NCBI GenBank assembly: GCA_036172245.1
Contig: JAYWIR010000130.1
Coordinates: 1-64,000, forward strand
Reading direction: 5' to 3'
Source of the DNA: Raillietiella orientalis
Lineage: Eukaryota
Length of the DNA: 64,000 nt
Positions 16,247-57,760 of this stretch are shown here, piece by piece. The position numbers and the translations under genes are program-made. Under the pieces are notes generated by a model. That model was not told the DNA's origin. It did no database searches and was given only the letters and a program-made list of their open reading frames with translations. Position 1 is the stretch's first letter. Every line of letters begins with the position of its first letter.

Positions 16247-16500
16247 GCTCGAGGACTGGGACGATCTGAAAAGATCGGTCTGCGAGTTCTGCTGCCGGAT
16301 CCCCTTGCACCTGCATCCACGCGGCTTCGGGAAGGGTGTCGCGAGCAGCAGATCGTTTCTGCAGACGCGTACCTTTTACCGATGCCAGGATGTCCGGCGT
16401 CTGGCGGAGTAGAAGGCCAGGGCCGAGGGTCAGGTTTGGCAGTCTGGAGCGACTTGTCTGCTCGATGACGCTGGCCAGGAATGCTCGGCTGCAGCCGACG
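16247..16500 (+). mobile_element. Element D, continuation of ORF2 after the E insertion
   Basis: Reads LEDWDDLKRSVCEFC...LLDDAGQECSAAADV, continuing D's ...IREL. Confidence 0.85.
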
Positions 16501-16894
16501 TTTGTCACTTGGCGATGCCGGGGCAATTGTTATTCTAAGTTTTTACAAAAATTAGATAATGAAGTCTTTAAAAAATGTTTTCTGTGGGGGAACACTGGGT
16601 TCTCATACGCAACAATGTACTTGCTAATCGGTCTTTTGACAGGCGAGTTTCTCTCCCCAGGCGCTGCAGAAAGGAAAAAAGGAAAATAAAAAACAAAAAA
16701 AAGGAAATAACGGGGAGAAAAACTGTTCTATGGGGAGGTGGGGGGTAGGGAAGGGATCACTGAACGCCTGGTACGGTCCTCCGCTTCCTGTTGAGGATGC
16801 AGTCAAGTTCAGTTTTTATTGTGAAAGGTAGACGCCACCTTGTCGCCGTCTTCGAAGAGATCGTCGTCTAGTGGATGGCGTGCGCAACACTTGT
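16501..16894 (-). mobile_element. Element F: 3'-terminal fragment, same family as T
   Basis: C-terminus AIH*TTISSKTATRWRLPF matches T (AIHWTTISLETATRWRLPP); 3' UTR homologous to 57355-57464. Confidence 0.85.
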
Positions 16895-16907
16895 GGAGGG
16901 GTGGTTG

Positions 16908-19900
16908 TTTGTCACCCGGGTGCGCCGGGGCGTTTATTATAAACTAACCGGGAACAGGGTTCCCGGACAAAGGGGAAAAGAAGAGACGAAGGGGGTGGGA
17001 TCCCCGACACGCAGGTCGGTATGCCGAAAGTCCGGAACGGGAGAAAAGGGACCACAAACACACTACTATATAAAAAAATAAAAGAAAAATATGGAGGGCA
17101 GGGGACAGGGGTCTTTGGTAAATCCGTTCCTTCCTTTCAAAACGGGCGATGGATGCCGGCGATCTCTCTCCTTACGCCCTGTGGCAGATGGGCCCACTGG
17201 GCAGCCGACGACATGTTTGCGCTGGCTAATCCGGTGGGCTGACGAAGGATGGCCAGCTTCTCCAACTCTCGGTGGGCCTTGTCGATGGCGCGGGTGCAAC
17301 ACACGGTTGCAACGACAGCACCCAATGACAGGCCGCCTGGCGTGAAGAAGCGGCGCATCAACTCCCTCGCGGTGTCCCCCTGGTGCAGGAGAGCTGAGGC
17401 CAGCCTCCGCCAGAGTCCTAGAAGGGCACCACAGTCCAGGAGCAGGTGCGAGAGCGTTTCCACTTCCCCGCACCGCTTACAGTTTGGGGAGACGACTCCC
17501 CCGGAAACAAGGTTCGTGCGCTGGTTGGAGTGAAAACCCCAATGCACCATCATAATCACATCCTGCTTCCACGAAAGGGGGAACACAGAAGTGTTCAGAC
17601 ACGAGGGAGGAACCACAAGTTCTTCAAGGGGCACACTCAAGTGTTCGCTCCACCGAAGAAGTCCCTTCGGAACGTGGCGAGGCGTGGCGGCGTCCGCCAG
17701 CTCGCAAGTCTTACAGCCGCCAATAGGTCGCGTTGTTCCTGCGATGGTGCAGGCGACCTCCCATCTCGCCGGTTCGCAACTGTCATCTCTTGCCCTGAGG
17801 GCTGACAGCGCGTCTTCGAGGGGGGTGACGGCCAGGCGGGTCCACTTCTCCTGGCTGTTGCACACCTCATCCACCGTGCAGTACGGGGAGAGGTGAGCGC
17901 AACGGAGTTCCAGGAGGGAAACATCCTGGTGCTTTGCCTAACCATGCAACGGTTCCTGCCGCCAGGCTTGAAAGTTCGTTGGGCGGCAGGAGATCCATTC
18001 CTGGGCTTCCAGGAGCCGATACAGCGGTTTCAAGGGGAAACCGAAGCTTCTCGTGGCGCGCTCCGTGTGCGGCCGCAGCGACAGAAGTCCATCGCTGCCT
18101 GTGCAGCGCCGCAGAAGCAGGCGCGCGGGAGCGCACCACGGAGTGGACCAAAGGTTGGCGCACAGGGCCAACATCCGAAGCTGCACCTGCAGCTCGATTC
18201 TCTCCAGCGTCAGGATGCCTAATCCAGCATCCCGACGCGGAGCCGCCAAGTCTTTGAGGCGGATCCTGGACCTCGCAGGTCCCCACAGAGCGTTCCTCAA
18301 CAGGCTGTGCGCCTGGAGCTTGGCCGAGTAGGGGGGCGGGCAAACAAAAAGCAGGGGGCGCAAGAGAGCGGCAACGAAGGTGTTCCATATCGTGGCCCGC
18401 TCCGGCAAGACGAACCTGCCATGGTGGAACGGGCTCAGGGCATTCGAAGCCTTCCGAAGGCAGTCCGACCACACTTCCACTGGGCTGATGTTCCCCAGCG
18501 GAACGCCCAGATATTGCACGGAGGAAGCGGTCGGGATCCCCAGGCGGATCCAGTCGGACTGCCCCTCCCACGCCGCACCAATAGGTACGACCACGCTCTT
18601 GCTCCGGTTTACGCTCATGCCCGCTCCCCGGCGAATCAGCTCGAAGAAATCCTCGAGACTGGATGCCGGGGTGATCATGGGTAAGAGGAGGAGCAGGTCG
18701 TCAGCATAGGCCGCCACGGACGGCGTTCCTGGACAAGAGCTCGGCAGGTTGGCCAGCGTCAGCCTGTACGCCCTCAGCACCAACTCAAAGAAGATGCTGA
18801 AGAGCAACGGGCTTAAGCTGTCGCCGTGCCTGATGCCCCGCCGCACCGGAACGCCGTACACGTGGCAGCCGCTAAAAGAGATGGAAATGAGCGCGTGGCG
18901 CCAGCAAGCGCGCAAATACGCCACGAGTTGCAACGGGAGACCGAGGCGTTCCAGGAGCTCCAGCAGGAGATCCTGATTTACGCAATCGAACGCCTTGCGG
19001 AGATCGACCGCGACCGCCAAGGCACCCGGCGCTTCCCCAGGCCGAATGCAGCGACGCCTAGCCTCGGCAGCCGCAGACGCGGTTGCCTGGCTGTCGTGCG
19101 CCACGCAGCGTTGCAGCTCGAGCAACGTGCGCGCGAAGAACAGGTTCGCCTCCATGGACCGCCCGGGAACAGCGTAAGACTGCTCCGGACTTACCACGGA
19201 TCCAGCGATCCTGCCCAGGCGCGCGACCCACAGCCTGGAGAACAACTTGACGTCCGCATTCACCAAGGTGATGGGACGCCAGTTGCTTAAATGGCGCATG
19301 TCTCCGCCTTTCGGCAACAGACACACCCTTGCTGAGCGAAACGAGGCCGGGACATTGCCCGTCTCTCGCCTCAGCGCAGAAAGCCTCAGCACCAGGGGGA
19401 TGAGTTCCGCCGCGAAGCACTGAAAGAACTCCGCAGGCAGACCATCCTCACCTGGCGCCTTGCGCTTCTTGAGGCCCGATATGGCGGAAGACACTTCTTC
19501 CGCCGTGAAGGGCAAGTCAAGAGTGGCGCGTTCCTCCTCGTCGACCGCCGGGGAATCCGCCGGCAGAAGCAGCTCCGAGAGACTGCGTTCCGTCGGCTCC
19601 CGAGCGTACAACAAGGAGTAATAGCGCTTTAGGAGGCGGCGAACTTCGGCCGCGCCCGAGCACTCCAGGCCCTGGTCGTCGAGCAGACAAGCTGCTCCTG
19701 ACTGCCAGACCTGGCGCTCGGCCTTGGCCTTGTACTCCGCAAGGTACCGGACGTCCGGGCATCGACAGAATTGGCGGGCCTGCAGAAACTCTCTGCTGTT
19801 GGCCACGCCTTCCCCGAAGCCACGGGGAAGCAGGCGCAAGGGGAACCGGCTGCAGAACTCGCGGACCGATCTTTTCAGATCGTCCCAGTCCACGAGCTCT

Positions 19901-21525
19901 CGAACGGCAAAGGTCCGGAGATGCTGGCGGAGGTGCTCCGCAGCCACCGGATTTCTCAACCAGTCGGCCGGCAACCTCCAGACGTGCGTCGGAGGGCCCT
20001 TGCCAGGCGGGAGTAGCTCAAACTCCAGCCTGTAGTGGTCGGAAAGCTCGGACGGCACGGGACCTCTTCGACCCACCCGGCAATGCAGGTGATCGTCGAG
20101 GAACACATGGTCCGGCAAAGCACGCATTCCGGGATCGTCGGCCAGCAAATTCGAGGCGTGCACCGACGCGCACACCTCGTTCACCAGCCGTTTCTCCCGG
20201 CGACGGTGAGACTCCTCCGATAGCGCCTGGACGTTGAAGTCCCCGGCTACGAGGTGAGCCACGTCAGGGCCGGAGTTCCTCAGCCAGCGGTCGCGCAGTC
20301 TCTCGAAAAACTCCAGTTTCTCTATGTGACGCGCGGAGCTGCTCGTCGCGTACACGTCCGTGAGGACAAGGTTGATCGATTCGGACCACTTGGGAACAAG
20401 TTTGCCCACACGACCTTCCTCGTCGAAACAAACGCTCCGCACTGCTCCCTCTACCCTGCCCCGGACAAAGAATGCGACTCCGTAGTTTTTCTAGGAGCCT
20501 GACCTCCAATGGAGCGTTCCAACTGCGCGAACTTGCAGATCGGCCGCTTGCTGCTCGGAGATTGCGTGAATCTCCTGCAGCAGGGCCAAATCAAAGTCGC
20601 GCAAGACGTTGGCAACCAATCGCCTCTTCTCGTTGTCTTGCAGCCCGTTGACGTTCCAACAGGCCACTCGGACACGAGGATAAGAAGCGAGACCGCGCAT
20701 TGCTGCTACGGACATGAAGGTGCGTTCCACGCCCCGTCAGGCGAGGTATCAGCCGGGAGCACGGCGGATGAGGTAGCGCAAGCGCTTCCTGTCCCCGCCG
20801 CGCCGCTCGCGGCTGGCTCGATGGAGTCGAGGACCATTGCCTCGGGCTCCGAGGAGCATCGGGAACCGTTTCCGGAATCGGGCTCTTGCCTGGCAAGTTT
20901 AGGCTTGCGCGCAGCCCTGGCCTTGACCGGGGCTTGGCGAGCCTTAGCGCTGCCCTCGGACTCCACCTCGGAGTCCGAATTGCGCGCGCGCGGCGGCGGG
21001 CGTTTCGCCTGCCTCTTTGTTTGCTGGCAGCCCGGAGCTGGTCCAGCACTCTTAGAGGGTGCCTTCGTCGCCGATCCCCCTTTCGGGGTCACGGCTTCGG
21101 CAGCTCCCCTCTCGCCGCGGGTGTTTGAGGCGGCGCGCGCGGGGGCAGCAGAGGCTTTTCCTTGCGCCTTTCTGGGCGCGCGGGGTTGCCTCTTCACCCC
21201 GCCTACCTTTTGGATCGGGAAGTGGGAAGGATCGCGCGGTTTGCGCTCCTTCTTTCCCCCGACGAAGGTCCAGCCATCCTCGCCGCCTTCCTGTTTGCCC
21301 CGGTTGGGCGCGAGGGCTTCCAGGGTCCTTCGCATCCTTTCCAAGGCCTCGGATACAGCGATGGAGGCCAGTGTCTCCTTCGCCACGTCTGCCTTCTGCA
21401 CCTCCTTACCGGGAGGTGCGGGCACAGTGGCGGGATTCTCGGGTGTCGCGCGAGGCTTTTCAGCCTTTGCTGGCGTTCGGCCCGCCGTGGCCGGCTTGCC
21501 TGTCGCGGGCAAAGAAGCGCGCGAC
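16908..21525 (-). mobile_element. Element G: 5'-truncated copy with ORF1 C-terminus and near-complete ORF2
   Basis: ORF2 20700-17137 in frameshifted pieces (834-aa ORF with GDFN, SDH, DLRKAFD, YADD; CKRCGEVETLSHLLLDC); 3' AATAAA plus CCCGG-CGCAC-CCGGG. Confidence 0.92.
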
Positions 21526-22097
21526 CCCCGCGATAGCCGAGAGGATCTCGTCCATCGGAAGAGGCTCGTCGAGGTTCTTTGTCTCCTCCTCCCCGATCGC
21601 TGCAGCGCCTTCCGGAAGCAGGAGTCGTGAGACGTTCTTCTCCGAAGGTGCCCTGGCATACAGGGAGAAGTAGTAACTTCGCAGCAGCCTGCGGATTTGG
21701 GCGGGTGCCGAGTGCTCCTGGCCCTGATCGTCCAGCAACATGGCCGATCCCGACTTCCAGGCTTGTATCTCGGCTTCCGCTTTGTATTCCGCTAGCCTGC
21801 GGATGTCGGGGGTCCTGGCGTAACGACGGGCCTGCAGATAGGCTCGTTTGTTGCGGACCTTGGTCCCATAACCCGTAGGTATGCGGTGCAGAGGGAACTG
21901 GTCGCAGAGCTCCTGGACTTACCGCTTGAAGCGGTCTCGATCCTGGAGTGTCCGCATGCTGAAGCTCCATATGAACGCGCGGATATGTTCCGCCTTGTCC
22001 GGGTGCTTCAGCCAGTCCCCTGGGAGACGCCATGCTGAAGAGGGGGCCCCTTTGTCTCGCGGATAAACCTCGAGAACTATCGGGCGATGGTCGGACA
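21526..22097 (-). mobile_element. Element H: internal ORF2 fragment (APE end to pre-RT linker)
   Basis: SDH...AWRLPGDW...LLDDQGQEHSAPAQIRR...DEILSAIAG. Confidence 0.85.
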
Positions 22098-23571
22098 CCT
22101 TCGTTGCCCCTCTCTTGAGCCCCCTGTTTTTTGTTTGCCTGTTTCCCTACTAGGCGAAGCTTCAGGCGCACAGCCTATTAAGAAACGCTTTGTGGGGTCC
22201 TGCGAGGTCCAGGATACGCCTCAAAGAATTGGCGGCTTCGCGTCGGGATGCTGTCTTAGGCATCCTGATGCTGGAGAGAATCGAGCTGCATTTGCCGCTT
22301 CGGATGTTGGCCCTGTGCGCCAACCTTTGGTCCACTTCGTGGTGCGCTTCCGCCAGCCTGCTTCTGCGACGCTGCACAGGCAGCGATGGACTTCTGTCGC
22401 TGCGGGCGCACACGGAGCGCGCCACGAGAAGCTCTGGTTTCCCCTTGAAACCGCTCTACCGGCTCCTGGAAGCCCAGGAATGGATTTCCTGCCGTTCAAG
22501 GAACTTTCAAGCCTAATGGCAGAAACCGTTGCATGGCTGGGCTAATCACCAGGATGTTTCCCTCCTAAACTCCGTTGTGCTCACCTCTCCCCGTAGTGCA
22601 CGGTGGATGAGGTGTGCAACAGCCAGGAGAAGTGGACCCGCCTGGCCGTCACCCCCCTTGCCGACGCGCTGTCAGCCCTCAGGGCAAGAGAAGACAGTTA
22701 CGAACCGCCGAGATGGGAGGTCGCCTGCACCATCACAGGAACAACGCGACCTATTGGCGGCTGGAGGATTTGCGAGCTGGCGGACGCCGCCACGCCTCAC
22801 CACGTTCCGAAATGACTCCTTCGGTGGAGCGAACACTTGAGTGTGCCCCCCGAAGAACTTGTGGTCCCTCCCCCCTGTTTGAACACTTCTGGGTTCCCCC
22901 TTTCGTGGTAGCAGGGCGTCATTAAGCTGGTGCATTAAGGTTTTACTCCAACCAGAGGACGAACCGTGTTTCTGGGGGAGCTGTCTCTCAAACTGTAAGC
23001 GGTGTGGGGAAGTGGAAACGCTCCCGCACCTGCTCCTGGACTGCGGTGCCCTTCTAGGATTTTGGTTGAGGCTGGCTTCAGCTCTCCTACACCAGGGGGA
23101 CACCGCCAGGGACTTGATGCGCCGCTTCTTCACGCCAGGCGGCCTGTCTTTGGGTGCTGTCGTTGCAACCGTGTGTTGCACCCTCGCAATCGACAAGGCC
23201 CTCCGAGAGTTGCAGGAGCTGGCCATCCTTCGTCAGCCCACCGGATTAGCCAGCACAAGCATGTCGTCGGCAGCCGAGAGAGCCCATCTGCCACAGGTCG
23301 TGAGGAGAGAGATCGCAGGCATCCATCGCCGGTTTTGAAAGGAAGGAACGGACTCACTAAAGACCCCTGTCTTCTGCCCACCATATTTTTATTTTTATTT
23401 TAATTTTTTATGGTAGTCTATTTGTGGTACCCTCCCTCCTGTTCCGGACTTTCGCCATACCGACCTGCGTGACGGGGATCCCTCCCCCTTTGTATCTTTT
23501 TTTCCCCTTTGTCCAGGAAGACTGTTCCCGAATAGTTTTTAATAAACGCCCCGGCGCATCCGGGTGATAAA
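22098..23571 (+). mobile_element. Element I: 5'-truncated 3' fragment, same family as G
   Basis: Close reverse-complement match to 16908-18385; AATAAA 23541-23546 plus CCCGG-CGCAT-CCGGG. Confidence 0.9.
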
Positions 23572-25660
23572 CAGCCGACTCCCGCGATCGTCTGGATTTC
23601 CTCGACTTCTGCCGCGGTGATCACGTGGATCTCCTGCGGCAGGGCCAGGTCGGACTCACGCAGGATGTCGGCCGTATCTCGTCTGCTGCTGTCGTCGCGC
23701 AGCCCGTTGACATTCCAAGAGGCCAGGTGTTTCCGACGGGGACAGGCGAGCCCAGGTGGTAATCCTGCAAAAGTGGTAGTGCGGCGTCCGCCACCTGTTG
23801 GTGGGGGACGCTTGGAGGCGGACGGGTCGGTGCTTCGAGCACCTTCTCCCCCTCTTCCATTGGTGTCGGTGCGTCAGACGTATCGCCCGAAGGTGTGGTC
23901 GCGCCTACCTGATCACCCTCGTCCATAGGGGCATGCTTTTCGGGTTGGGTGCATGCAAGGTTGGCTTCGTTACCCTGCTCTCCTTTTTCCATAGGCGTCG
24001 CCTGTGCGCCGGCTTCCGAGCGTGAGAGTTCCCCCTCCGTGATTCCCACGCTGGCGTCGGCTTTCGGCTTCTCCTCCTCGCTCGAAACGGGAGTGCACCT
24101 TTTGGGCTTTTGGAACTTACGTCCTGCCTTTCGAGGATGTTTCTCCGCGGAGGAGGATGAGTTTCCGGACTACCGGTGGGACTCACCTGCTTGAGACATT
24201 ATGTCTTTCTTAGGATCCGGCCTGCGGACTTCCTTACGCGACGGGGTTACGCGCTCTGCGAGCGTTGCTGCGAGCTCCTCCGCGTCCTTCTCGAAGGACG
24301 CGTCATTGCTGCCGGCCAACGTTGCCGCGGGCTCCTTCGCGACCTTATCAAACGCGGCGTCCTCGCTTTCGGCGCGCTAGTTTCGCGTCTCACCCTCTAA
24401 CCCTAGAGTAGACTCGTCCTTGGGAGTTTCGATCGCTTCCGCATCAGCTGATTTCTCAACTTTCTCGCAGGCAGCATCTTCAGGAACGGGTAAGCGTTCC
24501 AATACCACCGAGCATTGTCGGAATTCGGCGCGCGGTAGCGATTTTTTCTTTTATGCGACGGTAACCTTTTTCTCCGACTTTTTCTCATCTTCCTTCTCTT
24601 TCTTTTCTTTCCTGGCCTTTACCAGCTTCCAGTACCTTCGTTTTGCGTTATTTCGGAATGCTTTTCCTCCGACACCTGTGTCTGAGGTTGAGGATCCGAG
24701 GGCAGTTGCCGGCCATTTTCCGTATTAGGTCTTTCGACCTTCCTCATGAGTTTCGGTTGCACTTTTTTGGCGGCAGGCAGAACCGGGATGGGGCGCATAG
24801 GGCAAACGCTTCGAACTGCCCTTTATTTCCGCATAAGTGGCAGACAATGTTCGGGCAACTTTTTCTTAGATGAGCTACTAAATTGCAGTTGCCACAAAAT
24901 TAAGGGTTCCCCAAGAACAAGAGATCTACCGGTTCATAACAGACCTCCAGTTTGTGGGTAAGCACACCACCCACTTCCACCATGAGACGCGCTGCGGCTT
25001 GGCCTCCAAAAATGCTATTGAAGCCATCAAAAATCGTAGGCTTCGGCCTCAACGCGTGCACTTCACCGTGCTTATGTAGTTGATCACCAACCGCTGACCA
25101 CGTCATGCAACTGGTGATACCGGTGAGATGGACCACTACAGAGCGGTGCATCATCACCAGCAAGATCTTTCAAATATCAACGATCAGCGGGTCGGTGATC
25201 AGCCGTTGGGTCAAGGTGATATTTTTGTATACCACCTCGAACCGCTGACCCCCGCTAAGGACGGAGAGGCCGTCGAGATCCTGCTCCCGAATATTTGCGT
25301 TCTGCAGCGCCCTCGAGAAGGCGCGAGCAGTCCCCCCATCAAATAGTGGTCCTACCATATATATCAGCGTGGGTTAATACCCTGCTGCCCGGTAGGCCAT
25401 TTGTTCCGCCAGGGCTTCGGCGCGGGGCGCTGCCTCCATGGCACTCCAAGTCCACGTCTGTAGCGCCAAGAGCGATTCCAAAGCGGATGGCCCTGATCCA
25501 GTAGGCTCTGGGAGCGAACTAGCCTCCCCCACGCCTACTTCCATCGCGGTGTCCTCTAGCAACGCAGCCTTCGGACACTGACGATGTGAACGCACAAACC
25601 AGTCAAAGAAAAACGCTCCTCTTGCCACGCAGGCGTTGCGACGGAAAAACACGTACGCTC
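23572..25660 (-). mobile_element. Element J: 5' UTR, ORF1 and start of APE (N/W-like family)
   Basis: MEVGVGEASS...AYRAAGY, SGGQRFEV, CSVVLERLP; ASWNVNG, QEIHVI...TIAG; 5' GTACGTG at 25650-25656. Confidence 0.85.
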
Positions 25661-25678
25661 ACCACAAGAGGGTTTGGC

Positions 25679-28600: not shown

Positions 28601-29019
28601 CCCCAAATCCGAAGGGAAGACGGTGCAAGGGGAACTAGTCGCAGAACTCCCAAACCGAGCCCTTAAATAGCTCCCAATCGGCGAATTTCCGGAGGGTGAC
28701 GCCTCTCAGGAATTGACATTGTTCTTTTGCAGATGAGAGTCGCATCCAGTCCCCAGAAAGCCGCCACGCTCTGGACGGGGGTCCCTTGTTACGCGGGCAC
28801 ACCTCGAAGATTTACCTGGAATGGTCCGAGAGCGTCGACGCAACTCTCCCCCGTTTGCCGACCCGTGAACACAGGTCGGCATCCAGGAAGACGTGATCTA
28901 TGCTTCGGTCGATTCCCTTCACGTCCACCAGGAAGTTGCGCGTGCGCATGGCAGCGCCCAACTCGTTGGCCGTGCGTTCTTTCGCTTGGGGCTCACCTGA
29001 AAGCAGACGGAGATTAAAG
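25679..29019 (-). mobile_element. Element K: ORF2 from the GDFN motif to the 3' end
   Basis: FNLRLL, IDH, SDH, NLHKAFD, YADD, CARCGEQESLPYLLLDC; 3' UTR homologous to N and W. Confidence 0.9.
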
Positions 29020-44843: not shown

Positions 44844-44851
44844 ACTGCCAG

Positions 44852-45510: not shown

Positions 45511-45515
45511 AGGGT

Positions 45516-45522
45516 GGACGTG
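45516..45522 (+). promoter_or_regulatory. GGACGTG 5'-terminal motif, DPE-like (representative copy)
   Basis: Exact or degenerate copy within ~10 nt of all ten retained 5' ends; resembles the internal-promoter DPE of jockey-type LINEs. Confidence 0.5.
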
Positions 45523-45597
45523 CTTTTGTGGTGCTCCGCGTTTTTCTCGCGAGTGTTTTCGGTGTTTTCAGCTGTGAGCGGTTGTTCCTGGGCAGAG

Positions 45598-47266
45598 ATG
45601 CCCGAGGACGCCGCAAAGACGGCGGAGGGGGGCGAGCGAGCCTCGTCCCCCCAGCCCCTGGATGTGGGGGCCATCTCCCCCACGGAATCGTCCCCCGCCC
45701 CGGCGAGGGCTTGGAGCGCGGTGGTGGCGGCGCCTGCGCCGCCCCCCGCAGAGGAACAGCGGGCCTATATGGCCGACGGCTACAACCCGGCCCTACTTTA
45801 CAAGGTAGGTGGTCTGTACTCCCCCGCGGTGTTACGATCGTTCGCCGCGGAGTTTAAAAAGTTGAAAGTCCCGGAGGACGAAGTCCTCGGGCTTTCGGTT
45901 AGGAGTGGCGGGCAGCTGGTTGAGCTGAACTGCAAATCTGCAGGGATGGCTCAGCAGCTGCTCCGCCTGCCGGTGACCGTGAACGGTAGAAGGATCTTCC
46001 CGTTCACGGCGGACAACTCCATCGTGGTGCATTTGACCGGCATAACGATGCGCATGGCAAAGAGCGCCGTGCGAGAATCGTTAGAGAAGTTCGGGACCGT
46101 TCACGCGTTGTGGGCAAAACCCAATGTCCTGGGTTACACCAGGGCATTTAGTGATTACGCCGCTGCGCGCGTGACGGTACGTGCCGAGGGTGGGCTACCC
46201 CACAGACTGCAGGTCGGGGAGGAGGAGATCGACCTGTGGTATGTGGGGAAACCCGTATACTGCGGCTTTTGCCAGGTGTCGGGGCATTTAAAAAAGAAAT
46301 GCCCCAACATCGTGTGCTTGGGCTGTGGGGAGAAGGGGCACATCAGGCGGATGTGCCCCAACCGAAAAAGGTCCGTTCCGTCAGGCGCGAGAAAGGATGA
46401 GACGCCGAAGGAAAAGGACCGAAGCCAACAACTGGCAGAATCCCGCCCTGCCGACCAACCCGCTGCTCAGCCATCCTCCAGCGAACAACCAGATGGAGGA
46501 AGCGCCGAGAACGAGAAAGGTTGGCAAAAAGTAGAAAAGGAAGAAGCCCCAGAAGAAGGAGGCAAAAAAGATAAACAAGGCGGCGCCGAAAAAGCAGAAA
46601 CCGGTCGTCCGCGCTTGTACGGTGAAGATCGAACGCGTCTCGATCGCCAGAGCCGTAAAGAAAGTAACGGTAAAGGCGATCGATGCCGTCGATCCTGAGC
46701 CGGTCGTGCCCGCAGTGACGTCACCATCAGCTGACGACAATGCCGTTCCGGCATTGCCAGCGAAGGACGTCTGCGCGCCGATCGATGAAGCCGCCCCTGT
46801 CGCGCCTACGCAAAGCGTCGGTGCGGAAAGCGAGGAGGCGGCGCGCATAACGGACGCGACCTTCGCGCAGGCCGCGGAAGAGCTGGCAGCCATGTTACGG
46901 CAGCCTGCCAAGGCCGAGAAGAAGGCCTTGAGACGACCGGCAACGGTGAAGGGCCCGGAAAATTCCGAGTCCGAAACCGAAGCCGGTTGTTCTACTTCCG
47001 CAGCCGTGCCGAAGAGGAAGGCTGGCAAGAAGACCGGTTGCCCGAGACGGGTCGCCCCTCCGCAGGTGGAGGAGGCCATGTCCTCGGGCACGGAGGAGGA
47101 GGCAATGTGCGTCGCGCCACGCGACCCCTCCCCGATCCGTGTCTCGGAAGCCAGCCCCATGGAAGTCGCTGTGGACGACGTGCTCCCGTGTGAGCAGCCG
47201 ACCGTCGTCACGGCCGCCAACAAGCCGCCTCCCGCAAGGGAGGAGGCCGCCTCCACCCCACAATAA
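45598..47266 (+). pseudogene. R1 ORF1 (gag-like, two CCHC knuckles; +1 A frameshift near 46535)
   Basis: CGFCQVSGHLKKKC, CLGCGEKGHIRRMC; R3 reads through the same point (gtagaaaggaag versus gtagaaaaggaag). Confidence 0.9.
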
Positions 47267-47274
47267 ACGCATCA

Positions 47275-50200
47275 GTGCGTGGGCTCGCCTTCTGCCGCCG
47301 CTTGCGCATCACCTGTTGGAATGTCAACGGGTTGCGCGACGGCGGAAAGAGGCGAGATGTAGCCGCCAGACTGCGAGACTTCGACCTGGTGCTCCTGCAA
47401 GAGACGCACGTTCTCCGACCGGGAGATGTCCAGGAAATCGAAAGAATCGCGGGAGGGCGGCTACTGTGGAGGAACGGAACGGACAAATCCTGCGGAGTGG
47501 CCTTTCTGCTAAAGCCAACCGTCGACAACTCACTGCGCAGTGCACGGTTCGACGGGGATGGTCGAGTTGGGCAGCTTGTGTTCAAGTGGTCCGACTCGAT
47601 CGACCTCGTAGTCACGAACCTGTACGCTCCGGTGAGCAGCCACAGGGCCGAGGAACTCACTGCGTTCTTCGAAACCTTGCGGCGAGACTGGTTGGCCGAA
47701 GCAGGCGTGCGAAGGGCGCACCTCATTGCGGGCGATTTCAATCTCCGCCTGCTGGCAGGTGCGCCCAGCGGACGAGCACAGCTGGTCAACGAGTTGTGCG
47801 CAGCCATGCATGCGCGCAACTTGTTGGCCGGCGATGTCGGGAGAGATCGGAACATCGACCACATGTTCCTCGACAACCACCTGTGCACGCGGGTGGGAAC
47901 TCGAGGAACGCTCCCGGCAGAGCTGTCCGACCATCCCCGGCTCGTGCTCGAGTTACATCCGCGCAATAAGGGCCCTCCCCTGAAAACATGGCGCCTGCCA
48001 GGGGATTGGTTGCGCCTCGCAGGAGCGGCGGAACATCTACGCTGTTTCCTGCGAGGATTCCAGCTTCAGACGCTCGCGGACTGGGACGAAATGAAGTGCT
48101 CAGTCCGTGAGTTTTGCGACCAGGTTCCGCTGGAACGTCTTCCGCCGGGCTTCGGTGAGGGTGTCAGGAACGAGCGGGCGTACCTCCAGGCGCGCCGTTA
48201 TTCCCGGCGTCCCGACGTCCGTCGCCTGGCTGAATTCAAGGCTGAGGCGGAAAGGCAGGCCTGGCAGTCAGGCTCGGCCTGCCTGCTGGATCATCAGGGC
48301 CAAGAACGCTCCAGCCTAGCCCAGGTAAGCCGCATCGTGCGGGAGTTTTATTCCTCCTTGTACGCGCCACTAACACCTGAGCGCCATTTTGCGCAGCGCC
48401 TGCTGCCGGATGGCGCTCCCGCGCTCAAGGAGGAGGACCGTTCCAGATTGGCGGAACCGTTCACGATGGCGGAGATCATCTCCGCCATCAACAGGCTAAA
48501 GAGAAGGAAGGCACCAGGGGAGGACGGCCTGCCCGCGGAGTTTTACCATCGCTTCGCGCCAGAGCTGGCCCCCCTGGTGCTCAGGTTAAGTACGCTGATC
48601 CGCGAACACGGCGAAGTTCCCGCCTCGTTCCGGTCAGCTAAAGTACGTCTCCTGCCGAAGTCAGGAGACTTACGCAACATTGGCAACTGGCGTCCCATCA
48701 CAGTAGTGAATGCGGACGCAAAGTTGTATGCCAAGGTGTGGGCTGAGCGTTTGGGGCGGGTGGCCGCTTCCGTGGTGAGTCCCGAGCAGACCTATGCTGT
48801 TCCCGGACGAACCATGGAGGCCAACCTGCTCCTCTCCAGCTCATGGTGGCAGTTGCGACAACGCGTTGCACAGGACGGTCAAGGGAGCCTCGCGCCCCCC
48901 TCTGACCAAGAAGATCGGGCAGAGGGTGGGATGGACTCGGCGGGAGCCTTTGCCGTCGCGGTCGATTTGCACAAAGCATTCGACTGCGTCGACCAGGATC
49001 TCCGTCTGGAGCTCCTGGAACGCATGGGTTTCCCTGCCGTGCTCCAGTCCTACCTGCGCTGCTGCTGGCGCAACGCGTCAATAAATATTGGTTTTAGCGG
49101 CCGGCACGTGTACGGTGTGCCAGTGCGCCGCGGCATCCGGCAGGGTGACAGCCTGAGCCCCTTGCTCTTCAGCATCTACTTCGAGTTGGTGCTGAGGGCA
49201 TACAGAGTAACTCTGGCAACCCTGCCGAGCTCGTGTGCCGGCACGCCTGCCGTGTCGGCCTATGCAGACGATCTTCTGCTGCTGCTTCCCGGGTCCACCC
49301 CGGCGAGTGCACTCGAGGACTTCTTCGAGTTGCTGCGCCGCGGGACGGGCCTGGAGGTGAACAGGGCGAAGTCGTCCATGGTCTTCGTCGGTTCGGCGTG
49401 GGCTGGACGGTCGGACTGGATCCGCTTGGGGATCCCCACGGGCAGGTGCTTCAAGTACCTCGGTGTACCGTTGGGGGACTTCTGCGCAGCAGAAGCCTGG
49501 TCCGACCGTCTCCAAAAGGCAGCGTTGGCGATCGGTCCGTTCCAAGAAGGCAAGTTCTTCTTGCAGGAACGGGCCGCGGTGTGGAACGCGTTTGCGGCTC
49601 CCCTCCTTCGCCCCCTACTTTTTGTTTGCCCCGCCCCTTATTTTATTCGAAAACGAGCAGCGGGCCTCCTGAGGACAGTCCTTGGGGGCAAAGGGAGGTC
49701 CCGTGTGAGGCTCAAAGACTTGTGCGCTCCACGTAAGGACGGTGGACTTGGCTTACTTACGCTGGAGCGCATCGAAATACAACTTCGATTCAGGACTCTC
49801 GCCCTTGCGGCAGAATTGTGGGACACGCCTTGGTGCGTTCCAGCACGCCTCCTGTCCCAACGAGCCTGCGGAATCGGCGGACTTTTGTCGTTTCTGTCTG
49901 CGCGCGTCTGCAGAAGACCATACTGTGGCTCTATGCTGCGACGCATCTTTGTTGCGGTTCGGGAGAACGCCTGGATCTCCTGCCTCCCAGGGAACTACTC
50001 CGCCTGGTTGCACGAGTCAGTCTCCACCTGGTTAAGATCCACGTTCCGGCGGGCACAAGGAACACTTGTATGAAAAGGCACGCCCGCTGGACGCTGCAGG
50101 AGATCGTGCAGTCCCACGACAAGCTTCTGTGGGCCTTGATAACCCCCCTCGCCCCAGTGCTGCCCTTCCTTGTGAATGCCAGGGACAGTAGCGAGCAGGG

Positions 50201-50831
50201 GAAATGGACCGTGTCCTGCACTCTAGGCGGCAGGACACAATCGATAAAGGCGTGGACATCTCGGCAGCTAGCTGACGCTGCGACGCCGAGTGTCCCGCCC
50301 AACGGAATTCGACGCTGGGGCGAGCTACTCGGACTATCTCCGGAGGAGATGAAGTGGCCCCCAGCGTCCTGGAACAGTGCATCCCTCCCCCTGAAATGGC
50401 AGGATGTGGCGTTGCTTGTGGTCCTCTGGGGACTTCCATTCAAAGCACGCCTTCATCACACAACCCGGGGGGCTGTGGATCCTTATTGTGACCGGTGCGG
50501 GGCAAAAGAGACCTTCCCCCACCTTCTCATCGAGTGCAGTGCCATCCGCCCTTTATGGGATCGTCTCGCGGCGATCCTGGACTTGCGCGGATTCGGCCCA
50601 AAGGACGTTTTCAGGCGCCTCTTCTGTAGTGACGCCTTCTCCCCGCCCGCTAGTGTAGCAGTCCTCTGCTGCATCAGAGGAATAGTGGCGGCTTGGAACG
50701 CCACCAGAAGAAGGCGTCAGCCAACCGGCAACGCCTTACACTGGACTCGCGTTTTCGCGCGAAGTGTCTGCAAGTGGCACCACTTGGGCGCTGAAAGGAC
50801 TCAGCTTGTGCGGATCCTGAATAGGATCTAG
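47275..50831 (+). pseudogene. R1 ORF2 (APE-RT-CCHC, GTG at start position, frameshift near 50050)
   Basis: 932-aa ORF: CWNVNG, LQET, GDFN, IDH, SDH, WRPITVVNADAK, DLHKAFD, QGDSLSP, YADD, KYLGV; downstream frame has CDRCGAKETFPHLLIEC. Confidence 0.95.
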
Positions 50832-51058
50832 AGGACCTCTCCACGCGCACCGTGATCCCTTCCCCGCCCTCCCATCCCTACAACATTTGTTCCCCCCCCC
50901 CATTTGAACTTTTTGTTTCTTTTTGTTTTTCTTTATTTCCCATCCCCGCGCATCGGAAGGACCTCTCCGGCACGGAGCCGGTAACCATCAAGCTGTTATG
51001 GAGTGGTGAACCTTCGGGTTCGCCACGCGACAATTTTTCTGTTAGTTTATTTCTATGA

Positions 51059-51088
51059 AATAAATGCCCCGGCACATCCGGGTGTGAA
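51059..51088 (+). terminator. Conserved 3'-terminal signal: AATAAA plus short hairpin (representative copy)
   Basis: AATAAA-TGC-CCCGG-CACAT-CCGGG-TGTGAA; variants at all 12 retained 3' ends. Function inferred, not shown. Confidence 0.65.
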
Positions 51089-51096
51089 CAACCCGC

Positions 51097-51618
51097 CGCG
51101 GCGATCCTGGACTTGCGCGGATTCGGCCCAAAGGACGTTTTCAGGCGCCTCTTCTGTGGTGACGCCTTGTCCCCGTCCGCTTGTGTAGCAGTCCTCTGCT
51201 GCATTCGAGGAATCGTGGCTGCTTGGAACGCCACCAGAAGAAGGCGTCAGCCAACCGGCAACGCCTTACACTGGACTCGCGTTTTCGCGCGAAGTGTCTG
51301 CAAGTGGCGCCACTTGGGCGCTGAAAGGACTCAGCTTGTGCGGATCCTGAATAGGATCTAGAGGACCTCTCCACGCGCACCGTGATCCCTTCCCCGCCCT
51401 CCCATCCCTACAACATTTGTTCCTGCCCCACATTTGAACTTTTTGTTTCTTTTTGTTTTTCTTTATTTCCCATCCCCGCGCATCGGAAGGACCTCTCCGG
51501 CACGGAGCCGGTAACCAGCAAGCTGTTATGGAGTGGTGAACCTTCGGGTTCGCCACGCGACAATTTTTCTGTTAGTTTATTTCTATGAAATAAATGCCCC
51601 GGCACATCCGGGTGTGAA
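51097..51618 (+). mobile_element. Element R2: 5'-truncated ~520-bp copy of the R family
   Basis: Matches 50567-51088 with several substitutions; followed again by CAACCCGCCGC (51619-51629). Confidence 0.9.
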
Positions 51619-51634
51619 CAACCCGCCGCCTGAG

Positions 51635-53929
51635 AGGGTGGACGTGCTTTTGTGGTGCTCCGCGTTTTTCTCGCGAGTGTTTTCGGGATTTTCAGCTGTG
51701 AGCGGTTGTTCCTGGGCAGAGATGCCCGAGGACGCCGCAAAGACGGCGGAGGGGGGCGAGCGAGCCTCGTCCCCCCAGCCCATGGATGTGGGGGCCATCT
51801 CCCCTACGGAATCGTCCCCCGCCCCGGCGAGGGCTTGGAGCGCGGTGGTGGCGGCGCCTGCGCCGCCCCCCGCAGAGGAACAGCGGGCATACATGGCCGA
51901 CGGGTATAACCCGGCCTTGTTATACAAGGTAGGTGGCCTGTACTCCCCCGCGGTGTTACGATCGTTCGCCGCGGAGTTTAAAAAGTTGAAAGTCCCGGAG
52001 GACGAAGTCCTCGGGCTTTCGGTTAGGAGTGGCGGGCAGCTGGTTGAGCTGAACTGCAAATCTGCAGGGATGGCTCAGCAGCTGCTCCGCCTGCCGGTGA
52101 CCGTGAACGGGAGAAGGATCTTCCCGTTCACGGCGGACAACTCCATCGTGGTGCATTTGACCGGCATAACGATGCGCATGGCACAGAGCGCCGTGCGAGA
52201 ATCGTTAGAGAAGTTCGGGACCGTTCACGCGTTGTGGGCAAAACCCAATGTCCTGGGTTACACCAGGGCATTTAGTGGTTACGCCGCTGCGCGCGTGACG
52301 GTCCGTGCCGAGGGTGGGCTACCCCACAGACTGCAGGTCGGGGAGGAGGAGATCGACCTGTGGTATGTGGGGAAACCCGTATACTGCGGCTTTTGCCAGG
52401 TGTCGGGGCATTTAAAAAAGAAATGCCCCAACATCGTGTGCTTGGGCTGTGGGGAGAAGGGGCACATCAGGCGGATGTGCCCCAACCGAAAAAGGTCCGT
52501 TCCGTCAGGCGCGAGGAAGGAAGAGACGCCGAAGGAAAAGGACCGAAGCCAACAACTGGCAGAATCCCGCCCTGCCGACCAACCCGCTACTCAGGCATCC
52601 ACCAGCGAACAACCAGCTGGAGAAAGCGCCGAGAACGAGGAAGGTTGGCAAAAGGTAGAAAGGAAGAAGCCCCAGAAGAAGGAGGCAAAAAAGATAAACA
52701 AGGCGGTGCCGAAAAAGCAGAAACCGGTCGTCCGCGCTTGTACGGTGAAGATCGAACGCGTCTCGATCGCCAGAGCCGTAAAGAAAGTAACGGTAAAGGC
52801 GATCGATACCGTCGATCCTGAGCCGGTCGTGCCCGCAGTGACGTCACCATCAGCTGACGACAATGCCGTTCCGGCATTGCCAGCGAAGGACGTCTGCGCG
52901 CCGATCGATGAAGCCGCCCCTGTCGCGCCTGCGCAAAGCGTCGGTGCGGAAAGCGAGGAGGCGCCGCGCATAACGGACGCGACCTTCGCGCAGGCCGCGA
53001 AATAGCTGGCAGCCATGTTACGGCAGCCTGCCAAGGCCGAGAAGAAGGCTTTGAGACGACCGGCAACGGTGAAGGGCCCGGAAAATTCCGAGTTCGAAAC
53101 CGAAGCCGGTTGTTCTACTTCCGCAGCCGTGCCGAAGAGGAAGGCTGGCAAGAAGACCGGTTGCCCGAGACGGGTCGCCCCTCCGCAGGTGGAGGAGGCC
53201 ATGTCCTCGGGCACGAAGGAGGAGGCAATGTGCGTCGCGCCACGCGACCCCTCTCCGATCCGTGTCTCGAAAGCCAGCCCCATGGAAGTCGCTGTGGACG
53301 ACGTGCTCCCGTGTGAGCAGCCGACCGTCGTCACGACCGCCAACAAGCCGCCTCCCGCAAGGGAGGAGGCCGCCTCCACCCCTAAATAGACGCACCAGTG
53401 CGTGGGCTCGCCTTCTGCCGCCGCTTGCGCATCACCTGTTGGAATGTCAACGGGTTGCGCGACGGCGGAAAGAGGCGAGATGTAGCCGCCATACTGCGAG
53501 ACTTCGACCTGGTGCTCCTGCAAGAGACGCACGTTCTCCGACCGGGAGATGTCCAGGAAATCGAAAGAATTGCGGGAGGGCGGCTACTGTGGAGGAACGG
53601 AACGGACAACTCCTGCGGAGTGGCCTTTCTGCTAAAGCCAACCGTCGACAACTCACTGCGCAGTGCACGGTTCGACGGGGATGGTCGAGTTGGGCAGCTT
53701 GTGTTCAAGTGGTGAAACTCGATCGACGTCGTAGTCACGAACCTGTACGCTCCGGTGAGCAGCCACAGGGCCGAGGAACGCACTGCGTTTTTCGAAACCT
53801 TGCGGCGAGACTGGTTGACCGAAGCAGGCGTGCGAAGGGCGCACCTCATTGCGGGCGATTTCAATCTCCGCCTGCTGGCAGGTGCGCCCAGCGGACGAGC
53901 ACAGCTGGACGACGAGTTGTGCGCAGCCA
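51635..53929 (+). mobile_element. Element R3: 5' part of a third R copy (ORF1 51722-53389 with a stop at 53003; APE truncated)
   Basis: Near-identical to 45511-47806; breaks after DELCAA. Confidence 0.92.
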
Positions 53930-54505
53930 GCATCCGGTATCCCAAGTGCCGTTTGAAGACGTTTCCAAAGAATTTGGACGGCAGGGCATTCAACTAAGTG
54001 CTGGGGGAGCGACTCCCGCTCCCCACACATAGCACACGCAGGATTTACTCTTCCCCGCGTCCAGTGGAAGCGGCGCGCGTTGCAGGGTAGACCCCAATGC
54101 AGCCACAGAAGCGCCGATTCTCGCCAGTTCAGGGGAAGAAACCTGGAGCCTAGTATAACCGGGGGCCACTTTAGGACATCCAATCGAATGCCGAGCAGCT
54201 CGCCCCATCTTCTTAATTTACGCGGCTGGAGTCTAGGGGTCGTTGCACCTGTCAACTCTCCCATGGTCCAGCAACTCATCGTCTTCTCTCTTCCTGCGAT
54301 ACGGCAGCAGACTTGCCACCTTGGCTTCCGGCTTCCGTGAAGCGCCCTTTGGAGGAAGGCCATCGCCGTAACAAGGGGTGTGCTTTCCGCCCACGTGCAA
54401 CTCGGTGGAAATTCAAGTATTTCACGGAGAGTTCGGCTGGCGTAAAAGCCGACTCGCATGCAGTTCATCTGGTCTTCGCACCTCTGGTTCAGCTTGGCCC
54501 AGGCT
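53930..54505 (-). mobile_element. Fragment S: ORF2 C-terminal piece of the K/N/W group
   Basis: HWGLPCNARRFHWTRG, CAMCGERESLPQHLVEC. Confidence 0.85.
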
Positions 54506-57464
54506 CCGGCATTCCGCGAAGGGCTGAGTAACGATTGGGCATACCACCACGCCCGTCTATACTCTAGGACTCCCGACGTTCGACGCCTGGCGGAGTATAA
54601 AGCTGGGGCTGAGCGACAGACCTGGCAATCCGGGTCGCCCAGCTTGCTGGACGCCCAAGGCCAAGAATGCTCAGCTCCGGTGAGAATAAACCGCATCCTG
54701 CGGGACTATTACTCCTCCTTGTACGCGCGTAGAACAACAGAGCGCGCCGTGGCGCAGCGCTTGCTGCCGCAAGGCGCCCCCGCGCTGCAGGAGGAGCAGG
54801 CACATGAACTCGCGCAGCCTTTCTCCATGGCGGAGATCGTCTCCGCCATCGGAAAGCTCCGAAAGAGAAAAGCACCAGGGGAAGACGGTCTGCCCGCGGA
54901 GTTCTACCAAGGCTTCGTGGCGGAGCTGGCCCCCCTGGTGCATCGGCTATGCATGCTGATCCGAGAACAAGGGGACGTCCCCAAATCGTTCCGGTCAGCT
55001 AGAGTACGTCTCCTGCCGAAAGGAGGAGACAATCGTAACGTAGGAAACTGGCGTCCCATCACAGTAGTGAATGCGGATGCGTAGTTGCTTGCCAAGCTTT
55101 GGGCTGAGCGACTGGGACGGGTGGCGGAATCCGTGGTGAGTCCGGAGCAGACATACGCTGTTCCCGGACGAAGCATGGTGGCAGTTGCAACAAAGCGAAG
55201 ACCAGGGAGGTCAAGAGAATCCTGGATTCTCCTCTGACCAGGGAGGGGACGCCCTTCATGAAAAAGCGGCGCGCGGTACCCTTGCGGTCGCAGTCGATCT
55301 GCGTAAAGCGTTCGATTGCGTCGACCAGGAACTGCTTCTGGAGCTCCTGGAACGCTTCGGATTCCCGGCCGTCTTCCGGGCTCATCTGCGCTCCTGCTGG
55401 CTCTTCACTCTAATAAACATCTCTTTCAGCGGCAGGCACGTGTACGGCGTGCCGGTTCGGCGTGGCATAAGGCAGGGTGACAGTCTGAGCCCCATGCTCT
55501 TCAGCATCTACTTCGAGCTGGTGCTGAGGGCATACAGGGAGACTCTGGCAACCCTGCCAAGCTCGTGTCCCGGCACGCCTGCCGTGTCGGCCTACGCCGA
55601 CGACCTTCTGCTCCTGCTTCCCGGGTCCACCTTGGCGTCGGCGTTCGAAGATTTCTTTGAGTTGCTGCTCCGCGGGACGGGCCTCGAGGTGAAGAGAGAG
55701 AAATCCACAATCGTTCCTACATCACCACTACTTTCAAACAATACGGCGTGGGCCGGACGGCCGGACTGGATCCGCTTAAGGATCCCCACGGGCAGGTGCT
55801 TCAAGTACCTTGGCGTTCTGTTTGGGGACTTCTGCGTTGCAGAAGCCTGGTCCGACCGTCTCCAAAAGGTGGAGTTGGCGATCGGCCCGTTCCGGAACGG
55901 CAAGTTTTACTTGCAGGAGCGGGCCGCGGTGTGGAACGCGTTCGCGGCCCCCCTCCTTCGCCCCTTACTTTTTGTTTGCCCCGCTCCTTTCATCATACAG
56001 AGACGGACGAAAGCCCTCTTGAGGACTGCCCTTTGGGGCACAGCGAGGTCGCGAGTCCGATTGAAATACTTGTGCGCTCCACGCAGGGATGGTGGCTTGG
56101 GCCTCCTTACGTTGGAGCGCATTAACTTCAAACAACAATTCGAAAGTTAGCCCTTGCGGCTAGCTTATGGATGACGCCATTGTGCGATCCGGCACGGCTC
56201 CTCGCCAGAAGAGCGACCGGCTGCGAAGGATTGTCCTCGATCCTCGTGGCCTACCAGCGCAGCCTCTCCAACTCTGGTCCCGATTTGCGCCAGATGGTCG
56301 CCCTGATGAGGGAGAATACCTCGATCTCCTGCATCCCCGCGAACTGCACTGCCTGACTTCAGGAGTCAGCTTCCGCGTGGGCTGAGATCAACGGAACGAG
56401 CGAGGCGGAATACAACTGCCTACGACGAGGACCGTACGCTCGACAGACGCTGCAGGATATTATCAACACGCCCCGGAAGTTTCTGTGGGCTTCTTTCAGC
56501 CTTCATGCCCCCGTTCTGTCCTCCCTGAAAAACAGTAGAAGCAGCAACGAGCTGGCATCGTGGGTAGTGTCCTGCCTCATCCGAGGCAGGAAAAAACCTT
56601 TAAAGGCGTGGACGACTCGGGAGCTCACGGACGCTGCCACCCTGAGCGTCCCGCCTCACGGACTTGTGCGCTGGGGAGAGCTGCTCGCAATACCTCCGGA
56701 GGAGGTGAAGTGGCCCCCAGCGTGTTGGGATTGCGGCACACTTCCGTTGAAGTGGCAGGAGACGGCGTTGCTATTTCTGCACTGGGGACTGTTAAGCAGA
56801 GCACGCCTGTCTCACTGGACACTGGGGAATGTGGATGCCCGCTGTGTCGAGTGCGGAGAAAGAGAAACCTTCCCGCATCTCACCCTCGAGTGTGTCGCCC
56901 TGGATGGACTCTGGAGTCGAATCGCCCCAATCCTCCATCTTCCAGTAGGCGACCCTAAGGATATTTACCGTCGCCTCTTTCTGCGTGACGGCCTGCGCCC
57001 CGCTGCGTCTCTAGCAGTCCTCTGCTGCGTGCGCCGCATTGTGCAAAGGTGGCACGCCAGAAGAAGAGGCCCAAGATGCAGGGACGCCATCCACTGGACG
57101 ACGATCTCTCTAGAGACGGCGACAAGGTGGCGTCTACCTCCAACGGTAAAACCTGAACTTGACTATATCCTCAACAGGATGCGGAGGACCGACCCAGGCG
57201 CTTAGTGATCCCTTCCCTGCCCCCCCCCCTCTCCCCATACAACTGTTTCCCTCCCCGTTATCTCTCTTTTTGTTTGTTTTTGTTTTAGTTTTCCCTTCCC
57301 ATGCGCCTCGGGGATGGACCTAACCGGTGAATGCACCAGCTACCGACACGTCAACCAAGGTGGGAAAACCAAGTGTTTCCCACAATTAACTTTTGAAAGA
57401 CTTTATTATCTAATTTTTGTAGAAAATTAGAATAATAAATGCCCCGGTATATGCGGGTGGCAAA
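54506..57464 (+). mobile_element. Element T: ORF2 from the GFG site to the 3' end
   Basis: DLRKAFD, QGDSLSP, YADD, CVECGERETFPHLTLEC, stop 57205; AATAAA 57434-57439 plus hairpin. Confidence 0.9.
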
Positions 57465-57760
57465 CGTCGGCTGGAGCCGTGTATTCGCGGTCCTGGTCGT
57501 CGAGCAGAACTGTCGCCCCTGACTGCCACACCTGGCGCTCGGCCTTGGCCTTGTACTCGGATAATCGACCAACGTCCGCGTGCCTGGAATAGCAGGGGGC
57601 AGCAGAAAATCTCTTCTGTAGGCTACACCCCCTCCGTAGCCGCGCAGCAGCTGTTGCAAAGGAAACCGACGGCAAAACTGGCGGACCGCTCTTTTCAGTA
57701 CGGCCCTGCGGGCGAGCCACGGAGGTACCGGCGAAGATAGGCCTTTGGAGGAGGCGAACG
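57465..57760 (-). mobile_element. Fragment U: ORF2 linker piece
   Basis: LKRAVRQFCRRFPL...AERQVWQSGATVLLDDQDREYTAPADV. Confidence 0.85.

Follow-up and report, generated by a model that had tools for sequence, protein, structure and literature searches.

Two copies of one family of L1-type long interspersed nuclear elements (LINEs), here called the T family, landed antisense at the same base of two different LINE second open reading frames (ORF2s) in a 64-kb stretch of the Raillietiella orientalis contig JAYWIR010000130.1 (positions 1 to 64,000, hereafter the window). Our analysis confirmed this at both junctions, and the recurrent antisense landing site for one LINE family that an earlier sequence-only reading of the window had proposed is supported. 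We consider it probable that the T family integrates sequence-specifically, by target-primed reverse transcription, at one site in the ORF2 linker of a host lineage resembling F, a neighbouring LINE in the window. Insertion at a defined sequence and in a fixed orientation was seen in both window copies (2/2) and in one public contig, at the same base and antisense in every case, which is a small sample.

Junctions at a Shared Base

At the first junction, the plus strand reads ...GAATGCTCGGCTGCAGCCGACG up to position 16500, which is the sense strand of a host LINE, D, encoding E-C-S-A-A-A-D-V. From 16501 it continues as TTTGTCACTT..., the reverse complement of ...AAGTGACAAA, which forms the 3' end (...TGACAAA) of T', a minus-strand fragment of the T family. 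At the second junction, the plus-strand element T runs to ...GCGGGTGGCAAA (...TGGCAAA; also written ...GGGTGGCAAA) at 57464, and from 57465 it is followed by CGTCGGCTGGAGCCGTGTATTC / CGTCGGCTGGAG..., the antisense of a second host, U, encoding E-Y-T-A-P-A-D-(V). The host sense strand ends at both junctions in ...GCCGACG (GGCTSCAGCCGACG|T), within the codons A-D-V. The base after GCCGACG, either the T of the Val codon or the A of the element tail, is attributable to either side; but for this 1-nt ambiguity, both junctions fall at the same base. The site is in the ORF2 linker between the endonuclease and reverse transcriptase (RT) domains (...LLDDQG.E.S.A.ADV|RR...). Both junction sequences thus bear out the claim of two inserts lying antisense at the same base of AxADV|RR; the sequences had been described correctly, while their positions were 1-2 nt off.

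The inserts had also been said to share a C-terminus and 3' untranslated region (UTR), which holds for T' and T only. Positions 16503-16881 of T' and 57084-57464 of T are identical at 278 of 376 positions, and over the final 39 codons the identity is 74%. The window holds just two occurrences of the T-type 3' UTR word ATTATCTAATTTTTGTA, one in T and one in T', against 0.03 expected, and both T-type 3' UTRs (2/2) lie at the site. The exact target GGCTSCAGCYGACG is found three times, in D, in U and in a further host-lineage fragment, P, and two of the three are filled. The target predicted beforehand, CGTCRGCTG, fits all three. P had been read as an uninterrupted site, and it is one: GGCTCCAGCTGACG at 44774-44787 is followed by TGCGACGG (A-P-A-D-V-R-R) on the minus strand. 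The exact target is confined to the lineage of D, U and P, with F and other families diverged at these bases, so the T family appears to be specialised on one host lineage. By reasoning, we estimated the chance of meeting at the same base and strand of a ~6-kb element at about 1 in 12,000, which remains less than 1 in 100 once the 55 pairings possible among 11 element 3' ends are taken into account.

The target also contains a dyad, CGGCT-(G/C)C-AGCCG, just upstream of the proposed nick (16483-16500; 57465-57482). In D, the search for the target pattern matched the opposite strand too.

Further junctions came from public data. We aligned three public runs to 56900-57900 at a likeness of at least 80%; useful cover came from only one of them (X1), as short contigs, some of which match the window at 99-100%, and the counts given here are among the pieces and loose ends listed. 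One contig of 284 nt (record 6) spans the junction over 57411-57558; it shows 20 mismatches and has a T at 57466, and its two 1-nt indels both lie away from the junction. Across these 148 nt the D/T' and T/U junctions are separated by 31 mismatches without an indel, and we therefore rejected this contig as a copy of the D/T' junction. Since it differs from both window junctions, it represents a third filled junction at the same base, and its loose end beyond 57558 reads like an F/D-type host, not like U. A second contig (record 7, 450 nt) differs from U by 8 mismatches in 137 nt (~94% alike) and breaks exactly at 57464. In at least two X1 contigs the loose end at 57464 continues into uninterrupted host codons (...V-R-L-I-V-R-R-Y-Y-S in sense), and these are empty sites in the closest relatives of U. 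A metagenome scan returned 0 matches to the T-type 3' UTR word, and 68 pattern matches to the C-terminal domain alignment, none of them confirmed.

Hosts and Inserts

Host D lies in two parts. By the tblastn maps, its ORF1 (about 8001-9425) lies upstream of its ORF2 codons ~1-267 on the plus strand (9956-10764), which end in ...TTCGCCATCCGTGAACTCGA beside the 3' end of element a. This full-length minus-strand LINE (10765-16244; ORF2 14512-11000, ORF1 16118-14974) sits antisense in D at ~codon 267 (F-A-I-R-E-L) and divides it; its 3' end, GGGTGAAAA, is followed by antisense D, and its 5' end adjoins D at 16245. CTCGA on both sides of element a (10760-10770, 16240-16260) may be a short target duplication. 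Codons ~267-351 of D follow on the plus strand at 16245-16500, ending ...GGCTGCAGCCGACG in the filled target, and are 81% alike to F's own 19897-19642 by BLAST (79.7% over 236 columns).

The insert T' (16501-16906, minus strand) was delimited by alignment to T, by a tblastn match at 16879-16763 (74%) and by the UTR word at 16544-16560. It retains ~39 codons of the C-terminus, followed by the 3' UTR and by a terminal motif that has decayed, and ends at 16501. The aligned part covers 16501-~16881, and ~25 nt on its 5' side (AACCACCCC...) do not align to T. We rejected the neighbouring element H22 (21532-25669) as an upstream part of T', as its protein is a-like and it has no BLAST match to T.

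The sequence-only reading had taken F as the first insert, which was not borne out, the junction piece at 16501-16906 being a T-family fragment. F proper lies on the minus strand at 16907-21530 (5' limit approximate), with its own C-terminus (17137-17874), 3' UTR and terminal motif GGGTGACAAAC; its 3' end is complete at 16907 (...CCCCGGCGCACCCGGGTGACAAAC) and joined head-to-tail with T'. Its homologue of the target (19630-19655, minus strand) is uninterrupted and diverged (…GGGCGCGGCCGAAGTT|CGCCGC, codons A-E-V-R-R), the site falling between 19642 and 19641. A sister copy of F at 22094-23572 on the plus strand is 89.9% alike to F, and beyond its 3' end comes AGCCGACTCC..., which is antisense to another LINE near codon 60. 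Because F has its own 3' end and a sister with a different flank, there is no "F/T family", and the F family itself appears to have no preference for the A-D-V site. The sister was also rejected as the missing 3' part of D, since it is 90% like F and D only ~80%.

On the other side of the window, P (44253-44842, minus strand) carries ORF2 codons ~325-524 with the uninterrupted target, and its upstream end adjoins the truncated 5' end of an element W. T itself (54506-57464, plus strand) runs from ~codon 291 of ORF2 to the C-terminus, 3' UTR and terminal motif, with several frame breaks in ORF2. Its nearest family in the window is h (72% amino-acid likeness by tblastn, 78-80% nucleotide likeness by BLAST). 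Host U (57465-57745, minus strand) holds ORF2 codons ~272 (possibly 252) to 351, with its sense end ...GGCTCCAGCCGACG in the filled target; it is clear to 57700 and decayed beyond. Next to U lies the 5' region of V, an h/T-like LINE on the plus strand (57746-60051, limits approximate), whose ORF2 is cut at G-F-G codons by an element k.

Site Choice and Mechanism

The observations to be explained are two same-base integrations in the window, a third one seen in a contig, and sites left empty among the nearest relatives of the hosts. A target-primed route would account for them. The T family would be an L1-type LINE with an apurinic/apyrimidinic endonuclease (APE), and its target the sense strand of the ORF2 linker in an F-like lineage that includes D, U and P. 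The host coding strand would be nicked at 5'-GGCTSCAGCYGACG^T-3' (GACG^T; wider target GGCTCCAGCCGACGTGCGG). The freed 3' OH would then prime complementary DNA (cDNA) on the 3' terminus of the T RNA (...GGGTGRCAAA-3', the cDNA starting TTTGYCAC...), with an overlap of at most one base pair (T:A). The resulting copy would end up antisense, its 3' end fused to the A-D-V codons.

We also considered pairing of the T 3' UTR with the target and rejected it, as no complementarity rose above that of shuffled sequences (local scores 15 and 14, shuffle means 15.4 and 16.1). Given the 1-nt overlap and this lack of complementarity, we infer that a protein, most likely the APE endonuclease as for elements of the Tx1/R1 type (PMC4494074), chooses the site, in place of RNA-target pairing. 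The terminal motif AATAAA-GCCCCGG...CCGGGTG would by the same kind of inference serve as a recognition element for the reverse transcriptase.

Several observations weigh against this account. The window supplies only two junctions, to which the public data add one contig, known in part. The rest of host D (codons >351) was not found in the tblastn maps of the window, no 5' junction or target-site duplication of a T-family insertion was identified there, and no T-family copy in the window has a certain endonuclease domain; T, starting at codon ~291, lacks the supposed determinant. In the terminal hairpin described below, compensatory change was found in 0 of 7 pairs, and the single-sequence z-scores were weak. 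At least two X1 contigs follow the T 3' end to 57459 and then carry a tail ATAAAC and the flank ATCCAGAACC...; they may belong to another family sharing the terminal motif or be T relatives that landed elsewhere, and if they are T-family, specificity is not absolute. Lastly, U measures only ~240-280 bp and gives way to the 5' end of V, which is on the strand of T; T and U together could therefore be a read-through copy of a master at the site and not a fresh integration, although such a copy would still require an integration separate from that in D.

A different source of specificity is conceivable but unlikely. In flank-guided homing, the nicked target would pair with host-derived 3' sequence on read-through T transcripts, so that specificity is inherited through the landing site itself and not through the endonuclease. 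Co-transcription with the target strengthens target-specific integration of R2-/R1-type elements, according to the passages cited from PMC4494074. In the window, only 9 nt of the usual target stand between the 3' end of an element d and the 5' end of a same-strand element, which would fit an RNA template with downstream target. There are also many sibling families (55-80% alike), each with a different exact site, and this would be easier to evolve via flanks than via protein specificity. Yet read-through RNA is not directly evidenced, DNA sequence alone having been examined, and the shuffle-level complementarity and the 1-nt junction overlap both speak against it; a nick at the site would be needed in any case.

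Alternative Origins of the Shared Junctions

The sequence-only reading had itself raised the possibility that D and U are copies of one pre-inserted composite, which fails on the relationships of the hosts. On that view, one ancient insertion would have been copied along with its host, by segmental duplication, gene conversion or 3' read-through transduction, making D/T' and U/T a single integration. We regard this as very improbable. It is true that a single BLAST match spans the junction (16407-16881 vs 57558-57084, 77.8%), that insert and host are about equally diverged (74% between T and T', 69% between U and D), that both hosts are bounded on their far sides by the 5' end of an antisense LINE, near codons 267 and ~252-272, and that U is short and could be a transduced flank. 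D, however, is closer to uninterrupted F (79.7%) than to U (69.1%; 236 aligned columns). U in turn is closer to uninterrupted P, at 87.5% over the 72 nt that they share (76.4% to D), and to the empty public contig, from which it differs at 8 of 137 positions. Since neither F nor P is interrupted, tracing the inserts to one ancestral insertion would call for precise loss on two occasions.

The outer flanks tell against a composite as well. The far-side neighbours a (of D) and V (of U) are alike at 154 of 280 positions (55%; shuffles gave a mean of 41% and a maximum of 45%), and their break points relative to the hosts differ. D continues across element a to ORF2 codons 1-267 and ORF1, a full host element, and is therefore not a transduced scrap. 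In addition, the third junction, in the public contig, has another host flank. On this comparison of sequences, the insertions in D and U appear to be independent events, and a duplicated composite is unlikely.

The standing of P as an empty site may be less independent. P and U are on the same strand and overlap by 72 nt, P to the left and U to the right of a plus-strand block of W, the h array, a minus-strand element i and T, and P lies where the other flank of the U host would be expected. They may be two host copies, or one host hit twice (by V first, then by W..T). The latter would imply long target duplications, with P as the regenerated site, and one would expect CGTCGGCTG... and antisense host codons to 351 past the 3' end of V. 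The likeness between W and V is 84%, and that of h to either V or T ~78-80%; V/W and T have no overlapping part. The empty public contigs are independent of whether P and U were one host.

That the T family has no sequence specificity at all, inserting anywhere in LINE-rich chromatin with the shared base a coincidence or an alignment artefact, is scarcely credible: the 3' flanks of F proper and of its sister are indeed unrelated, and e, F and h each adjoin another element head-to-tail, but the T junctions are base-identical and in one orientation, both T-type ends in the window (2/2) and a third in the contig lie at the site, a second family behaves likewise at another site, and the reasoned chance is below 1 in 100 after multiple comparisons.

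A Second Family-Specific Site

The second family comprises d, f and k, whose 3' ends (25679, 37561 and 60061, minus strand) are in 3 of 3 cases followed by antisense G-F-G/K codons. The flanks read GCCAAACCC at 25679, CTTAAATCC at 37561 and GCCAAATCC at 60061, and all three ends adjoin GCCAAAYCC or CTTAAATCC. This family lands antisense at the ORF2 G-F-G codons (~codon 293) of an element g, of V and of T, and the antisense host ORF2 continues beyond f and k. Copy f is flanked by a ~9-10-bp target duplication, GGATTT(T)AAG (37552-37560 and 41766-41775). A fourth copy, i (53905-54513), meets T at the homologous G-F-G codons (54506-54513).

At d, just 9 nt of the family's target (GCCAAACCC; 25670-25678) separate its 3' end from the apparent 5' end of H22; either a host has been destroyed here, or template jumping joined on a read-through RNA. 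Not all junctions in the window are recurrent, as F to T', e to d and h to h to h are same-strand head-to-tail joins. Another recurrent break or landing point may lie just ahead of Q-V-W-Q-S-G codons, where both the upstream end of P (44843, joined to W) and the start of a deletion fall, the latter at 31529-31565 inside element e, which lacks codons ~325-465.

A Nest of L1-Type LINEs

The window as a whole is a nest of L1-type LINEs, with a GC content of 50-64% throughout. We drew its layout from a BLAST self-comparison and from tblastn mapping, for which ORF2, C-terminal and ORF1 sequences served as queries. Fragments of ORF1 and ORF2 turn up on either strand over the entire 64 kb as clustered nested copies, some twenty related copies and fragments that are 70-90% alike, many of them interrupting one another. 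The long ORFs carry Exo_endo_phos and RVT_1 domains and a putative zf-RVT domain in ORF2, and a putative CCHC knuckle in ORF1. The order of endonuclease and then RT in ORF2, an APE-type, L1-group feature, is displayed by family h, the T copy beginning at codon ~291. The 932-residue ORF2 of h, the nearest T relative (47275-50073), matches Exo_endo_phos at 1.1e-13 and RVT_1 at 1.2e-22, and T's own ORF at 55185-56150 matches RVT_1 at 6e-19. The zf-RVT match in the C-terminal ORF of T scores 27.2 bits (cut-off 27.5) and those of zf-CCHC in the ORF1s 20.7-22.6 bits (cut-off 20.8); the C-terminal alignment of the elements has invariant Cys columns.

The top PDB match of the 932-residue ORF2 is human LINE-1 ORF2p (E 1.9e-46), with R2 proteins at ~1e-14. 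A protein search returned a single close relative, at 65% identity, and others at 22-30%; the architecture PF03372+PF00078+PF13966 is common to these distant relatives.

A regular expression for the 3' end gave 16 matches, of which 11 were taken as element ends and five (8853, 28406, 46152, 47262 and 52276) were judged internal or chance. None of the 11 ends has poly(A); they stop a few bases past a conserved ...CCGGGTGnnAA[AC]. The nested families thus lack the A-rich tail that is a feature of the L1 group, and the sole A run belongs to an unrelated element (1874-5400). All nested families keep the terminal motif AATAAA-GCCCCGG-(5-6 nt)-CCGGGTG-nnAA (for example at 57434-57464, 51059-51089 and 60061-60092). 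It can be folded as a short hairpin, in which one-sided C-to-T changes preserve G-U pairs.

Other arrangements were seen along the window. The element with the A run, which follows its stop codon, is a more distant LINE on the plus strand (1874-5420; 28% amino-acid identity to the others). From 16501 to 32545, T', F, H22, d and e follow one another over ~16 kb, all on the minus strand, with only the F-like copy at 22094-23572 nested antisense, inside H22. Family h forms a head-to-tail array without spacer on the plus strand (45496-53933), consisting of a full copy (45496-51089), a mini copy (51090-51619) and a second copy (51620-53933). The likeness of the large copies to each other is 97.6%, and the mini copy is the element's first 10 nt (AACCCGCCGC) fused to its last ~520 nt. 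T', with ~25 nt and the last 380 nt joined to the 3' end of F, may be a deletion derivative of the same kind. The second h copy breaks off at ORF2 codon ~177 (53925-53940), where it passes directly into the C-terminal region of i on the minus strand (GTGCGCAGCCA|GCATCC); this resembles a plain deletion in which T lost its 5' part and i its 3' part.

Implications and Comparison With Known Systems

The two sites may be parts of a larger pattern, which we put forward tentatively and at somewhat less than even confidence. The window could be a self-building island made of LINEs only, in which sibling L1-type lineages each own a private, exact landing site in the coding sequence of others, T at A-D-V of the F-like lineage and d/f/k at G-F-G of T, V and g. 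Purifying selection on the host protein would keep the guest's target conserved, and the families would live off one another, not off the cellular genome. If the T family truly recognises 14 nt in the coding sequence of a sibling LINE, the genome holds a natural series of close L1-type enzymes with different exact DNA targets, which would be material for learning how APE-type endonucleases or LINE ribonucleoproteins gain specificity and for programmable insertion. It would also offer a concrete mechanism by which LINE-only, GC-rich islands, among them the proposed centromeres of some green algae, build themselves without harming genes, and an ecology where one parasite finds its safe harbour in the protein motifs conserved in another. 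The gain from the present finding is modest, one further family-site pair in a small sample.

Fixed-position insertion of LINEs into mobile elements is already known. A literature search, which did not cover the original Zepp papers, found no LINE families using sibling ORF2 codons as antisense landing sites in the passages it returned. The closest parallel in the cited passages is the Tx1 clade, whose LINEs insert at fixed positions of DNA transposons and long terminal repeat (LTR) retrotransposons, with the endonuclease mainly setting the target (PMC4494074). Examples given there are Tx1L in Tx1D, Tx1-Mar in Mariner-N4_AMi and Tx1-9_AMi in Harbinger, while Tx1-8_Crp and Tx1-4_AMi sit in LTR retrotransposons. 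As far as these passages go, the T family resembles the Tx1 clade in being an APE-type LINE at a fixed position and orientation inside another multicopy mobile element, with sister families at different positions, tandem copies at the site and specificity attributed to the endonuclease. The likeness is one of behaviour. Tx1 targets are a DNA transposon, an LTR element, a small nuclear RNA gene or a microsatellite, whereas T lands in protein-coding sequence belonging to sibling LINEs from its own group, and the targeted LINEs here are hosts and guests of each other.

Nested clusters are shared with Zepp of Coccomyxa/Chlorella and ZeppL of Chlamydomonas and its relatives, L1-type LINEs that target existing copies (PMC3446292, PMC8226300). 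In the passages cited, these too form GC-rich clusters of nested copies, with one or few families targeting their own copies and arrays of 3' ends; unlike the window, those passages describe no fixed nucleotide position, antisense rule or families with private sites. Ribosomal DNA-specific LINEs of the R1/R2 type and telomere-specific LINEs share oriented, target-primed insertion at an exact nucleotide of a multicopy target (for example PMC5035012 and PMC7265360). These elements target host genes or telomeric repeats and not other retrotransposons, and R2 uses a restriction-like endonuclease, unlike the APE-type T family.

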